The notes under the pieces: generated by a model
Told to the model about the DNA's origin: nothing
What the model saw: the letters and a program-made list of their open reading frames with translations, nothing else
The model's database searches: none
Origin: Promethearchaeota archaeon
GTDB taxonomy: Archaea > Asgardarchaeota > Lokiarchaeia > Sigyniarchaeales > SOKP01
Assembly (NCBI GenBank): GCA_019058015.1
Contig: JAHLWH010000207.1
Span: 1-18,793 of the forward strand
Direction of reading: 5' to 3'
Length of the DNA stretch: 18,793 nt
Program-made: the position numbers and the translations under genes
Part shown: positions 13,143 to 17,478 of the stretch, one piece after another
Layout: the number at the start of each line of letters is the position of its first letter
Position numbering within the stretch: the first letter of the stretch is position 1

Positions 13143-13820
13143 ACGCCATTAATTATAATTCTTGCAGAAACTGGACTTGAATTAATACCTGATGAATTAA
13201 AATCAGAAAAAATCACAAAAAAGAATTATGATCCTAATTATTATCCCTCTATGATCCTTGATAATGCAATATATCATCCAATTATGAATAAACTTTCCAA
13301 TACTGAAAAAAGAGGGAGACCCGATATCGTCCATCAATTCCTACTTAATTCCTTAGGCTCTCCATTAAATAAAAAGGGGCTTTTACAACTCTATATTCAT
13401 ACTATAAATAATAAAATTTTTAAAATTAACCCACGGCTACGGATTCTACGTAATTATGAGAGATTTAAAGGTCTTATATCAAAATTATTAATTGAACGAA
13501 ATATCAAATCCGAAAAAGAAACTTTAATATCTGAATATTCTGACTCCTTAAAAGATTTAATTATTGATATAAATCCAGATAAAATAATAATGCTTTCAAG
13601 TAAAGGAAAATTATCCAAAAATCCAATTACTTTATTTTCTTCAGATTTCACTAAAAAAATGTTAGTTCTTATTGGCGGTTTCCAAAAAGGAATGTTTAAT
13701 GAAGATATTTTATCTATATCTGATAATCTAATTTGCCTCTATAATGAAAGTCTAGATTCATGGATTACCACAAGTAGAATAATTACCTTCTATGAATTGG
13801 CAATTAAATTATATGAGTGA
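13143..13820 (+). CDS. nep1: Nep1/Emg1 rRNA pseudouridine N1-methyltransferase (SPOUT), with an apparent non-AUG start
   Basis: RGRPDIVHQFLLNSLGSPLNKKG, YIHT, RNYERFKGL, IGGFQKG. The conserved N-terminus PLIIILAETGLELIP lies 36 codons upstream of the listed ATG and begins with ACG at 13143. Confidence 0.92.
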   Translation, partial: TPLIIILAETGLELIPDELKSEKITKKNYDPNYYPSMILDNAIYHPIMNKLSNTEKRGRPDIVHQFLLNSLGSPLNKKGLLQLYIHTINNKIFKINPRLRILRNYERFKGLISKLLIERNIKSEKETLISEYSDSLKDLIIDINPDKIIMLSSKGKLSKNPITLFSSDFTKKMLVLIGGFQKGMFNEDILSISDNLICLYNESLDSWITTSRIITFYELAIKLYE

Positions 13821-13882
13821 ATTACCCAAAAATTAAAAAAAAATAGATAATTCTTAATAATATTATATTAAAAATTTAATGC

Positions 13883-13953
13883 GCGCTCGTTGTATAGAGG
13901 TAGTATCCAGGCCTTCCAAGCCTGTGGCCCGGGTTCGATTCCCGGCGGGCGCA
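13883..13953 (+). tRNA. tRNA-Gly (TCC), intronless, CCA not encoded
   Basis: Acceptor GCGCTCG/CGGGCGC+A, anticodon arm CAGGC CT-TCC-AA GCCTG, T arm CCGGG TTCGATT CCCGG. Confidence 0.97.
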
Positions 13954-14040
13954 TTTTCCCCTCTTAATAATCATTCTTTAACATAGTAAAACAGAATGGT
14001 TTATTGAATTCCAACTTAAAAAGATCAACTTCAGAAGATA

Positions 14041-14553
14041 TTATAATTCAAGATACCAAATATACCATCTTGCATATGTGTGAACCAACCCTAAAGGTTT
14101 AAACCAAATTACGACTGAAGTATACTTTGTTATGTCCATAGTGTTCGGTATAGATACTGAAAAATTCCCGATAAAATATGGTAATAAACCCAAATCAACA
14201 AATTCCCCAAGGTCATATGGCGGTGGTTGTTTAAAACTCGTCTGATTAGAAAGAACAACGTAACATTCTGGCTTATAATCAATAAATACATCAACAAAAT
14301 AAATTGAATAATTTCCTCCTGGTAATCTTACTAACCAAACATCTCCATGATGAGTATCATCTGAAAGCATTATTTTAAGTGAACCCTTTACTATCCATTC
14401 TGCATCTGGATCAAATTCCTCATATGTTGTACTAATTTGAAGAACCATGAAAATAGAAACACAAATCACAGGTACAATAATTACGACAATTATCAAGGAA
14501 TTTCTATATTTTTTGTTTTTAAAAGAAAATTTTGATGACTCTTTTTCCACCAT
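14041..14553 (-). CDS. Membrane-anchored DM13-like domain protein
   Basis: N-terminal TM (LIIVVIIVPVICVSIFMVL). PECYVVLS, VDLGLL..FIGNFSVSIP..MDITKYTSVVIW resemble the DM13 consensus. Confidence 0.72.
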   Translation of the reverse strand: MVEKESSKFSFKNKKYRNSLIIVVIIVPVICVSIFMVLQISTTYEEFDPDAEWIVKGSLKIMLSDDTHHGDVWLVRLPGGNYSIYFVDVFIDYKPECYVVLSNQTSFKQPPPYDLGEFVDLGLLPYFIGNFSVSIPNTMDITKYTSVVIWFKPLGLVHTYARWYIWYLEL

Positions 14554-14759
14554 TTGAATTTTACTCTTTTTAATATAAAACTGTATGAATCTATTTACAA
14601 TGTTTTCTTATTTAAATCTTTAAATTTAAAGCTACTAGACAATAAAAATCAAATAATTCTATTATTATCAAAAGAAAGAAAAAAGAAAATTTATCAATTA
14701 AAAAATATATTAAAAATTATTAAAAGAAGAAAAAAAATATCAAAGCCAAGGTGGCGTAG

Positions 14760-14788
14760 AATGCCGCTCAAATAGGGCACATACGTAA
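14760..14788 (+). other. tRNA intron 1 (29 nt, D-loop, position 15/16)
   Basis: Central helix GCGT/ACGT, bulges AG^A and AA^C, intron-side helix ATG/CAT. Confidence 0.82.
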
Positions 14789-14804
14789 CCCGGGAACGCA
14801 CCAG

Positions 14805-14825
14805 ATTTGTTTAAACAAAGGTGAT
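14805..14825 (+). other. tRNA intron 2 (21 nt, anticodon stem, position 30/31)
   Basis: Central helix CACC/GGTG, bulges AG^A and AT^A, intron hairpin TTTGT-TTAA-ACAAA. Confidence 0.88.
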
Positions 14826-14847
14826 ACTGAAGATCTGGGTATCGGGG

Positions 14848-14877
14848 AAAAGTTTCCGCCTCGGAGGCTTTCCGAAA
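14848..14877 (+). other. tRNA intron 3 (30 nt, T stem, position 52/53)
   Basis: Central helix TCGG/CCGA, bulges GG^A and AA^G, 10-bp intron hairpin AAAGTTTCCG/CGGAGGCTTT. Confidence 0.88.
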
Positions 14878-14940
14878 GTTCAAATCCCCTCCTTGGCAAA
14901 AAATCATCTGAATTATTCTTTTTTGAAAATCAAATGATTA

Positions 14941-15858
14941 TTATAAATCATTATAATAATGTGGTTTATTTTTACGAATTTCATTAATTTTTTTTCTTAA
15001 CATATAACTTTTAAAATTTAAAAATTTTTGATACAACTCAGTAGTATTAGGACCTCTGCCATTTTCCTCATAAAATTTATCTATATAATCATAAACATTT
15101 TGATGTTTGTTATCATCTTCCGCATAAAGATCTTCTTGTCTTAATTTCTCTATAATTTGAGATTTAATTTCAGGAAGTTTTACAATGAAATCTCTAAAAT
15201 CCCTAGTAATGATATCTTGATATATAGCCTTAGATTTGGGATTTTGATTTTCAAAATCTTTTTTATATTTATCTAATATTTTATTTGTTAATTTTATATC
15301 TTCATACTTTAAATTTCCACTTAAAGTATTAATTATTTGATTTCTTTCCAAATTTTGTCGAATTTCTATGGGTTTATTAGAAATTTCATGAATTTGCTTA
15401 TTAATATTTATTTTTCTTTGTTGCTCAATATCATACTTTTGAATTATTTTTTCTATATTTCCAAATTCTTGATGCTTTGCCAATAGTGTTCCTTGGTGAA
15501 TCTTTCCTTCTTCATCTAATTTTAATTTTCCATCCGTATTAGGTAAATTATTTATATCTACAATATAGGATTTACCAGTATCTTGATTAAATACCGCAAT
15601 AAAATCAACTTGACCTTTATAATTGACCCTGGAGGTGTCAGATTTTTGAACGGAAGCTTCAAATCTCACATATCTATTATCTTTTTCATGATAAGTCCTG
15701 CCAGTTTTAACTTGAACAGTATAAAATTTCCTTTCCTTTTTTATAGCTAAATCATATCTTTCATTGCCAGTAATTGGAGTTAATACATTATAGCCATTTT
15801 TTATAAATTCCTTAGCAATTCTCATTTCATTTATTTCACCAATATATCTTGCAGATTC
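14941..15858 (-). CDS. PD-(D/E)xK endonuclease of the group I intron-associated (PDDEXK_5, I-Ssp6803I-like) family with long C-terminal extension; 5' end clipped
   Basis: IGEINEMRIAKEFIKNGYNVLTPITGNERYDL...TVQVKTG...YKGQVDFIAVF. The conserved G-E-x2-E helix lies upstream of the listed ATG (15825), and no other start codon is in frame. Confidence 0.8.
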   Translation of the reverse strand, partial: ESARYIGEINEMRIAKEFIKNGYNVLTPITGNERYDLAIKKERKFYTVQVKTGRTYHEKDNRYVRFEASVQKSDTSRVNYKGQVDFIAVFNQDTGKSYIVDINNLPNTDGKLKLDEEGKIHQGTLLAKHQEFGNIEKIIQKYDIEQQRKININKQIHEISNKPIEIRQNLERNQIINTLSGNLKYEDIKLTNKILDKYKKDFENQNPKSKAIYQDIITRDFRDFIVKLPEIKSQIIEKLRQEDLYAEDDNKHQNVYDYIDKFYEENGRGPNTTELYQKFLNFKSYMLRKKINEIRKNKPHYYNDL

Positions 15859-17478
15859 TATTACGATTGAGAAAAGTGCTACAGTCTTTGGGACAAATTA
15901 TAAAGTAAGAACTGCAGCAGGGGAATTTAGTATTCCTACATCAATTATTGACGATAAAAAGAATTTAGCAGAGATTTTAAATATAATTGAAGAATGTGTG
16001 AGATTAAAATATTCCGCAGATGACTTTGAAAAGAGAATAAAAACGACAGCTATAAATATTGAAGATAAGGAAATTTCTGAAATAAAAATTGGATTATATA
16101 ATGATTTATTAGAGTTAGAAAAGAATGGAAAGGATCACATTTGGGTAAGTATTCTACGTAATGCTTTTAGACCTTTATTCATTGGCAAATTTGATTATGT
16201 TGTAGGAAATCCTCCTTGGATCCTTTGGGATAATTTACCAGAAGATTATAGGGAGAGTACGATAAGTTTATGGAAAAAATATGGATTATTTACCCTATCT
16301 GGTTCCAGAGCGAGATATGGGGGAGCTAAAAAAGATATTTCAATATTATTTACTTATGTAGGAAGTGATAAATATCTTAAAAAGAATGGAAAATTAGGCT
16401 TTCTAATTACTCAATCCGTATTTAAAACTAAAGGTGCTGGTGAGGGCTTTAGATCTTTTAGATTTCCTCAAAAAAAGAAAATTAATGGGAAAGATATCAC
16501 AGTTAATATAGATTTGAAATTAATAGAAGTTTATGATTTTGTAGATGTTAAACCATTTGAAGGGGCAAATAATAAAACTAATGCTTTTATTTTAAAAAAA
16601 AGTGGTGAAAAAACATTATATCCTATTGATTATACATTATGGAGGAACTAAATGATATAGATCAAAAAGAATCGTTAGAAACAGCAATTAAAAAATTAAT
16701 ACCCATAGAGATGGCAGCTATTCCTTCTGATCCTAATAATGAATTATCTCCTTGGATAACATTACCCAAGAATGTAATTAAAATTGTAAAAAATTTTTAT
16801 GGACAGAATGAATATAAATCTCATGAAGGAGTTAATAGTGGAGGTGCTAATGGGGTCTATTTTATTGAAATCTCAGATATATTAGATCAAAAAGAAGTTG
16901 GGATTGATATCTCAAATAAAGAATTAGAAAAACTACTAAATATAGCTCAACCAGTAAGAATAAAAGAATTAAGGATTAAAAATGTATTAAAGGGAATGAA
17001 AAAAAAATATCCTAAAGTTGAAACCCTTATTGAGGATTTTTTTATATATCCAATGATAAAATCCAAAAATGTTAGGAGATGGAAACTAGATGGATATAAT
17101 TATATAATACAAATGCAAAATCCAATTACAAAGGTGGGTTTTGATGAAAGTTTTGTAAGAATAAATTTTCCAAAAACCTATTCATATTTTGATTCTTTTA
17201 GAAGAATTTTAAGTGAAAGAAAAACTAAAGTTGTTAGACAACTTGTTGATAATGGTTCTGCTTTTTATACTATGTACGGCGTAGGTGAGTATACTTATGC
17301 TCCTTTTAAAGTCGTATGGAATCAGATGGGTAAAAAGTTAACATGTTGTGTCATTTCAACCATTAATGATAAATATTTAGGAGAAAAACTTATCTTACCT
17401 GAACATGTATTAGCGTTTATGGAATTTTATAATAAATTAGAAGCACATTATGTTTGTGCTATTATGAACTCAAGTATT
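15839..17478 (+). pseudogene. Type IIG-like N6-adenine methyltransferase/TRD, 5'-truncated, frameshifted at ~16647 and 3'-truncated
   Basis: PIYLADSI, FDYVVGNPPW (motif IV), YLKKNGKLGFLIT, FEGANNKT. After a frame change it continues with SPW, HEGVNSGGANGVYF, YTYAPFKVVW and EAHYVCAIMNSSI. Motif I and the nuclease domain are absent. Confidence 0.85.

Follow-up and report, generated by a model that had tools for sequence, protein, structure and literature searches.

The canonical intron of archaeal tRNA genes is located at position 37/38 and is reportedly enclosed by a strict hBHBh′ motif, as set out by Marck and Grosjean in 2003. In the Thermoproteales up to three bulge-helix-bulge (BHB) introns are found per tRNA gene, non-canonical sites are used, and the splicing endonuclease EndA is of the (αβ)2 type with the crenarchaeal specificity loop. 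The multi-intron tRNA genes of this order are said to have been described by Sugahara et al. in 2007 and 2008.

Heavily interrupted tRNA genes have also been described in Asgard archaea. According to the accessible text of PMC11291895, introns are present in 92–95% of the tRNA genes of three Asgard genomes, with more than half carrying several. The available sections of a 2026 preprint (Goswami et al. 2026; bioRxiv 10.64898/2026.10.13.758758) report up to five introns in single Asgard tRNA genes, a load of 2.2 introns per gene across three focal families compared with 0.91 for the remaining Asgard families, repeated gains, a tRNAscan-SE miss rate of 30% for the focal group, and a pair of EndA paralogues encoded by 44 of 60 genomes; a tRNA-Phe(GAA) interrupted by three intervening sequences serves there as the worked example. 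An Asgard (αβ)2 EndA with an L1 loop was reported in 2018 (accessible part of PMC5829648). The initial annotation of the locus studied here regarded triple-intron tRNAs as rare and best known from the Thermoproteales; judged by the available text of these sources (PMC11291895; bioRxiv 10.64898/2026.10.13.758758) that view is outdated, such genes being common in Asgard archaea, where a gene may carry as many as five introns, and the novelty of the locus was overrated because Asgard multi-intron tRNAs and the (αβ)2 EndA were already in print. The gene described below is a three-intron tRNA-Phe of this already published kind.

The genome examined (G000) comprises 3.84 Mb in 283 contigs, is 94.4% complete and has a G+C content of 29.4%. 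The window, that is, the whole stretch of 18,793 nt that was analysed, corresponds to its contig C211. An island of 154 nt (G+C 50.6%, with 60.8% in the exons and 18–21% in the flanks) at 14745–14898 on the plus strand is a phenylalanine tRNA gene of this Asgard archaeon and is interrupted by three BHB introns. Removal of insertions of 29, 21 and 30 nt left exons of 15 + 16 + 22 + 21 = 74 nt, which were recognised by ARAGORN as tRNA-Phe(GAA) with a call spanning positions 1–74 and a score of 119.3, within the range of 110.9–121.3 obtained with ARAGORN for the unambiguous intronless tRNAs of G000. The coordinates, insertion lengths and 74-nt product proposed in the initial annotation were thus exact. 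The minimum free energy (MFE) structure of the spliced 74-mer was the cloverleaf, at −29.7 kcal/mol (RNAfold), and the ARAGORN bracket structure showed stems of 7/4/5/5 bp and a 7-nt anticodon loop with GAA. The features of the locus are the following:

14700–14744, plus strand: AT-rich leader with TATA-like stretches (e.g., 14717–14725), read from the sequence; putative promoter
14745–14759 (15 nt), plus strand: exon 1, 5′ sides of the acceptor and D stems, with U8, A14 and G15; aligns to positions 1–15 of the intronless tRNA-Phe
14760–14788 (29 nt), plus strand: intron 1, site 15/16, D-loop
14789–14804 (16 nt), plus strand: exon 2, remaining D-loop and 3′ side of the D-stem, position 26, and 27–30 of the anticodon stem
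14805–14825 (21 nt), plus strand: intron 2, site 30/31, anticodon stem
14826–14847 (22 nt), plus strand: exon 3, from position 31 through the anticodon loop (GAA) and the 3′ side of its stem to the variable loop and T-stem 49–52
14848–14877 (30 nt), plus strand: intron 3, site 52/53, T-stem
14878–14898 (21 nt), plus strand: exon 4, G53 with the T-loop, the 3′ sides of the T and acceptor stems, and A73 as discriminator; CCA not encoded
14916–14924, plus strand: T-rich tract 3′ of the gene, read from the sequence; possible archaeal terminator

The exon sequences hold U8, A14, G18, G19, G20, U33, G53, T54, T55, C56, A58 and A73, and the T-loop of the spliced tRNA-Phe is GTTCAAAT. We take G20, the anticodon and A73 to be tRNA-Phe identity elements. 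The three insertions were exactly reproduced in a motif-free MAFFT alignment with the intron-free 74-nt tRNA-Phe genes of G050 and G040, genomes of a sister family; both genes are tRNA-Phe(GAA) according to ARAGORN. The Sprinzl assignments 15/16, 30/31 and 52/53 are correct if the 9-nt D-loop contains a 17a. For introns 1 and 3 it is the mature tRNA, not the motif, that sets the junctions; the middle junction is the sole one that can be shifted, by one base, on the letters alone because an A stands on both sides of it, and there the BHB fixes 30/31. An intronless tRNA-Gly(TCC), the only ARAGORN call in the window, is located 790 nt upstream at 13883–13953, and the two neighbouring tRNA genes are sharply unequal in their intron load.

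The BHB geometry used here, the canonical one of archaea, takes as central helix the pairing of exon bases −6 to −3 with intron bases n−5 to n−2, and as bulges exon bases −2 and −1 plus intron base 1 on one strand, and intron bases n−1 and n plus exon base +1 on the other. The motifs at the three introns are given below, with the slash marking the splice junction:

Intron 1 (15/16): central helix GCGT:ACGT, 4/4 pairs (one G-U); bulges AG/A and AA/C; inner helix 3 bp, outer helix 1 bp
Intron 2 (30/31): central helix CACC:GGTG, 4/4 pairs; bulges AG/A and AT/A; inner helix 5 bp, outer helix 1 bp
Intron 3 (52/53): central helix TCGG:CCGA, 4/4 pairs; bulges GG/A and AA/G; inner helix 10 bp, outer helix 1 bp

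These data are in full agreement with the initially annotated three BHB introns of non-canonical position, which lie in the D-loop, anticodon stem and T-stem and each have a 4-bp helix and two 3-nt bulges. When the introns were shuffled (20,000 times each), a canonical motif appeared at the exact junction with frequencies of 0.00165, 0.00025 and 0.0042 for introns 1, 2 and 3, respectively, the product of which is about 2 × 10−9; as a local background, 18 of the 13,080 (position, length) pairs in 250 nt matched a 4/4 central helix plus an inner helix of at least 3 bp. The inner flanking helix h′ (3, 5 and 10 bp) exceeded the required 2 bp at all three introns, and the outer helix h, for which the strict hBHBh′ definition also asks at least 2 bp, was of 1 bp at each. 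The three motifs are therefore HBh′-like and not strict hBHBh′; they are canonical by the rule of four central pairs plus one flank used in the preprint and relaxed by the strict rule. With outer helices of 1 bp, motifs of the HBh′ kind would be expected to depend on a broad-specificity enzyme.

Exon bases 10–13, 25–28 and 47–50 take part in the central helices and are later found in the D, anticodon and T stems, which confirms that the BHBs borrow bases of the future stems. The further claim that the precursor cannot fold as a cloverleaf held locally; it failed for the acceptor stem, which was already present in the MFE structure of the precursor. A structure with all three BHBs and the acceptor stem was feasible at −48.5 kcal/mol, compared with −53.4 kcal/mol for the unconstrained MFE, and in the unconstrained ensemble the pair probabilities of the central helices were about 0.5–0.8, 0.5 and 0.2 for introns 1, 2 and 3, intron 3 being the lowest. 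No base is common to any two of the three BHBs, and therefore the order of splicing is not forced; overlapping BHBs with an imposed order of removal were ruled out for the same reason.

Two EndA paralogues were found in the genome, on contigs C235 (200 aa) and C115 (206 aa), each containing both PF02778 and PF01974, the N- and C-terminal endonuclease domains. The 200-aa protein (α) was nearest to A. pernix 3p1z_B (E 1.2e-34) and P. aerophilum 2zyz_B, both catalytic subunits; aligned to the A. pernix subunit it keeps the Tyr/His/Lys triad and runs ungapped through the crenarchaeal specificity loop, with K58 and R60 opposite A. pernix K44 and R46. The 206-aa protein (β) has a Pro at the position of the catalytic His. 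According to the accessible part of PMC3241643, K44 is required for the cutting of non-canonical introns. The pair is of the (αβ)2 type with an L1 loop, its assembly and substrate range being predicted. The EndA subunit architecture, whose determination had been suggested in the initial annotation, comprises an α with triad and loop and a β without the catalytic His, and the proposal made there of a suitable enzyme is consistent with a two-subunit EndA whose catalytic subunit has the crenarchaeal-type Lys/Arg in the loop. An RtcB gene is present as well. Among named public genomes, EndA relatives (90–92% identity for the best 3 of 42 loci) came from metagenome-assembled genomes labelled ‘Promethearchaeota’ or ‘Promethearchaeia archaeon’, in agreement with the Asgard host initially suspected; Promethearchaeia is the Asgard class formerly named Lokiarchaeia.

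From the sequence, the following course can be proposed for transcription, cleavage, ligation and charging of the product of 14745–14898. Transcription would give a precursor of at least 154 nt with three protein-spliced introns. At each intron, four exon bases ending two upstream of the 5′ cut would pair with four bases near the intron 3′ end, and the remainder of the intron would form a hairpin, giving a BHB with one 3-nt bulge per strand. The two-subunit EndA would make its cuts behind base 2 of the bulges, and the exons would be ligated by RtcB; the freed exon strands would then pair into the D, anticodon and T arms, with CCA added later. We hold it to be very probable that the locus is the only recovered tRNA-Phe(GAA) gene of G000, with three protein-spliced introns processed by EndA α plus β and then RtcB. 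The gene anatomy, the motif statistics, the orthologues and the enzyme genes on which this account draws are direct observations.

No other tRNA-Phe was recovered from the 94.4%-complete, 283-contig assembly by ARAGORN with and without introns, Rfam, a pattern search or a survey based on BHB removal, so that an intronless copy elsewhere, named in the initial annotation as a possible refutation, was not found. ARAGORN reported 16 tRNA genes in G000 without and 38 with its intron mode, none of them Phe(GAA); the 35 Rfam tRNA matches did not include the tRNA-Phe locus; and a 19-nt pattern of the Phe anticodon arm had one match. On the unspliced gene, ARAGORN in intron mode gave no call for 14700–14950, Rfam at the gathering threshold found only the tRNA-Gly in the window, and at E ≤ 10 six weak matches were obtained for 14650–15000, none of them a tRNA. 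The expectation that standard scans would overlook this gene was therefore correct for ARAGORN in both modes and for Rfam cmscan up to E = 10. No paralogues of the three introns were found elsewhere in G000, and no spare copy of the acceptor strand in the leader within 14401–15200.

In the BHB-removal survey, an ad hoc and uncurated one, 45 tRNA loci of G000 were resolved into about 15 intronless genes, 24 with one intron, five with two and only the tRNA-Phe gene with three, that is, roughly 0.8 introns per gene. Genes for the tRNAs of Asp, Glu and Trp were not recovered in G000 by any method used; since the survey was uncurated and lacked these three, genes with several introns may be undercounted. 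The G000 calls of ARAGORN in intron mode also included one tRNA with a stop anticodon and two each of Pyl and Phe(AAA). Odd calls of this kind, when solved again, were ordinary tRNAs with non-canonical introns, such as Pro(GGG) and Ala(CGC), and of the two ‘Phe(AAA)’ one was an Asn(GTT) interrupted twice and the other a single-intron Gln(TTG). A candidate for a second tRNA-Phe at C75:22235–22372 on the minus strand, named Pro(cgg) by ARAGORN in intron mode, was rejected on account of G3:U70, which identifies it as tRNA-Ala(UGC) with two introns. Different intron removals yield different anticodons, and therefore features of the tRNA body are needed to name such genes. The tRNA sets of such genomes are under-annotated.

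The anticodon-arm pattern was also applied to the family, where it matched 88 places in 84 of 121 genomes. Two matches at contig ends were omitted, and of the 86 examined 72 were solved, with one BHB candidate taken per alignment gap; the 14 unsolved loci are L050, L119, L124–L127, L129, L130, L135, L141–L143, L150 and L175, of which L126 matches poorly and L175 is truncated by a contig end. Because the pattern sits in exon 3, genes interrupted there escape it. Of the 72 solved tRNA-Phe genes, 18 had a single intron, 28 had two, 18 had three and eight had four, and none was intronless. In the sister family, by comparison, a tRNA-Phe was found at seven of the 13 loci examined, with no intron or one.

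The introns of the family recur at about six sites (linear positions 15, 20, 23, 31, 52–54 and 59–60), among them the 15/16, 30/31 and 52/53 for which a survey of relatives had been suggested. Introns at 15/16 were found in 11 family genes and at 30/31 in 37, the latter all ending in GGTGA or AGTGA plus one more base. All 34 distinct introns at 30/31 keep GGTG or AGTG, and all six distinct introns at 52/53 keep CCGA with differing hairpins; in introns of the same site the exon-complementary 3′ end is constant and the hairpin sequence varies. The congeneric genome G002 has an identical gene (154/154 nt), with flanks 94–96% identical over 14702–15841 and, further upstream, 13200–13958. In G001, of the same genus, introns were found at 15/16 (39 nt) and 52/53 and none at 30/31, and the changes in its counterparts of introns 1 and 3 keep the pairing.

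Four introns were seen at L054, L055, L056, L121, L131, L136, L144 and L151 (in genomes such as G008, G011 and G018), at linear positions 20, 31, 52 and 60, which extends the genes to about 193–205 nt for a 74-nt product; several of the unsolved loci resemble them. L040 on G004:C2, about 4 kb from the tRNA-Phe of its genome, resembles a tRNA-Arg(TCG) gene and has an intron of 30 nt at 52/53; this intron has the same exon context as intron 3 of the G000 tRNA-Phe and is similar to it. Similar matches were found at G001:C43:5432–5478 and G002:C249:4130–4176, and the tRNA-Arg(TCG) of G000 (C43:1471–1544) is intronless. There are hints that introns may be shared between tRNA genes with like T-arms.

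It is very unlikely that the locus is a decaying or non-functional tRNA-Phe copy with insertions, its working counterpart being located in the 6% of the genome missing from the assembly. An assembly that is 94.4% complete and divided into 283 contigs leaves room for such a gene, and expression of the present one is predicted only; however, the cloverleaf is perfect once the insertions are removed, all three insertions sit on canonical BHBs, the G002 gene is identical, and at least one intron is present in 72 of the 72 solved family genes, so that interrupted genes are the working form in the family.

A cut of the middle insertion at a relaxed 37/38 motif instead, which would excise a different stretch of 21 nt and give the Phe body a UGU anticodon, has a next to negligible probability. 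The product of this alternative (window 14798–14838) scored 117.8 in ARAGORN, with 3/4 pairs in the central helix and 5 bp in the outer helix on the anticodon stem, but the 37/38 motif is without an inner helix, whereas the 30/31 motif is canonical with 4/4 pairs and an inner helix of 5 bp. Orthologues lacking intron 2 (G001, G036 and the intronless sister-family genes) read GAA without interruption, the remaining 30/31 introns of the family differ in sequence, position 37 would become a pyrimidine, and a separate intronless tRNA-Thr(UGU) is present on C179. The UGU-anticodon cut is probably a chance decoy, and 30/31 is retained as the site of intron 2.

An artefact or chimera of metagenomic reads can be practically dismissed, for although the genome is a metagenome-assembled draft, the stretch occurs whole in four runs (possibly its own source), about half or more of the sampled words occur in runs of other studies, a 155-nt contig of another study covers 14743–14884 with one difference, and G002 has the identical gene within flanks of 94–96% identity. 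Among the runs listed for the stretch, none was of RNA.

The tRNA-Phe gene is located at the boundary between a core and a variable region. The core genes for S19e, the RNase P protein Rpp21 and Nep1 are found upstream, and directly downstream, at 14941–16651, there are a PD-(D/E)XK endonuclease gene (PDDEXK_5) and a fragment of an Eco57I-type methylase gene. In the congeneric G004 (L198, on G004:C2), compared with window positions 13200–14759, the Nep1/tRNA-Gly neighbourhood is shared with 94% identity, the DM13-domain ORF (14041–14553) is missing, and the tRNA-Phe differs in its T-stem and has one intron, placed at 19/20 or 20/21. The intron set {15/16, 30/31, 52/53} of G000 and G002 thus stands against {19/20} in G004, the T-stem sequence differs along with the set, and homology between G000 and G004 stops at the tRNA gene, adjoining the variable nuclease/methylase region. 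In addition, DNA metagenome contigs of near relatives (runs X8 and X12) showed direct joins of exons 1–2, 2–3 or 3–4, their loose ends lying at 14759, 14826 and 14847. Because these contigs lack single introns, the presence of single introns varies among natural populations. A speculative reading, which we consider rather unlikely, is that the set of tRNA-Phe introns in this Lokiarchaeial family undergoes turnover at the level of species or strains, moving as whole alleles. Were recombination or gene conversion, and not separate insertions and deletions, responsible, a route of intron arrival and loss would be named; in the available text of the 2026 preprint several intron routes were tested and none was general (bioRxiv 10.64898/2026.10.13.758758).

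Nothing new is added to the mechanism by the three-intron tRNA-Phe gene. It is a fully resolved tRNA, invisible to two standard scanners, in the Asgard class to which the cultured relatives of eukaryotes belong. The family survey is the more useful product, since it follows a single, easily aligned gene: the range of one to four introns in 72 solved family genes, against none or one in the sister family, allows gain and loss to be tracked at a fine grain.

In comparison with the Asgard multi-intron tRNAs described in the accessible parts of the published reports, the present gene is alike in its short BHB introns at non-canonical sites of the D-arm, anticodon stem and T-arm and in being partly invisible to annotators; those cases centre on Atabeyarchaeia, Freyrarchaeaceae and Jordiarchaeaceae, whereas this tRNA-Phe belongs to a family of Promethearchaeia (Lokiarchaeia), and the main text of the preprint (bioRxiv 10.64898/2026.10.13.758758), as distinct from its supplementary tables, has no occurrence of ‘Lokiarch’ or ‘Prometheoarch’. 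The load of G000, a modest one of about 0.8 introns per gene in the rough survey, is near the 0.91 which the available preprint text gives for non-focal families. The (αβ)2 EndA of A. pernix and P. aerophilum (PDB 3p1z, 3ajv, 2zyz; accessible parts of PMC3241643 and PMC5829648) aligned end to end with the α subunit (E 1e-34 to 3e-31) and shares with the Lokiarchaeial genome the loop Lys/Arg, the Tyr/His/Lys triad and a second paralogue without the His; it differs in that the identity of α is roughly 40% or less, as judged by eye from the alignment. The canonical 37/38 intron has the same cut geometry, a 4-bp helix and two 3-nt bulges cut past the second bulge base, but the present introns occupy other positions, have outer helices of 1 bp and form their central helices with D, anticodon and T stem bases. 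The multi-intron tRNAs of the Thermoproteales are alike in intron number, sites and EndA type; the tRNA-Phe gene differs from them in having no paralogue of any of its three introns in the genome and in its host, a sediment Asgard archaeon of 29% G+C.
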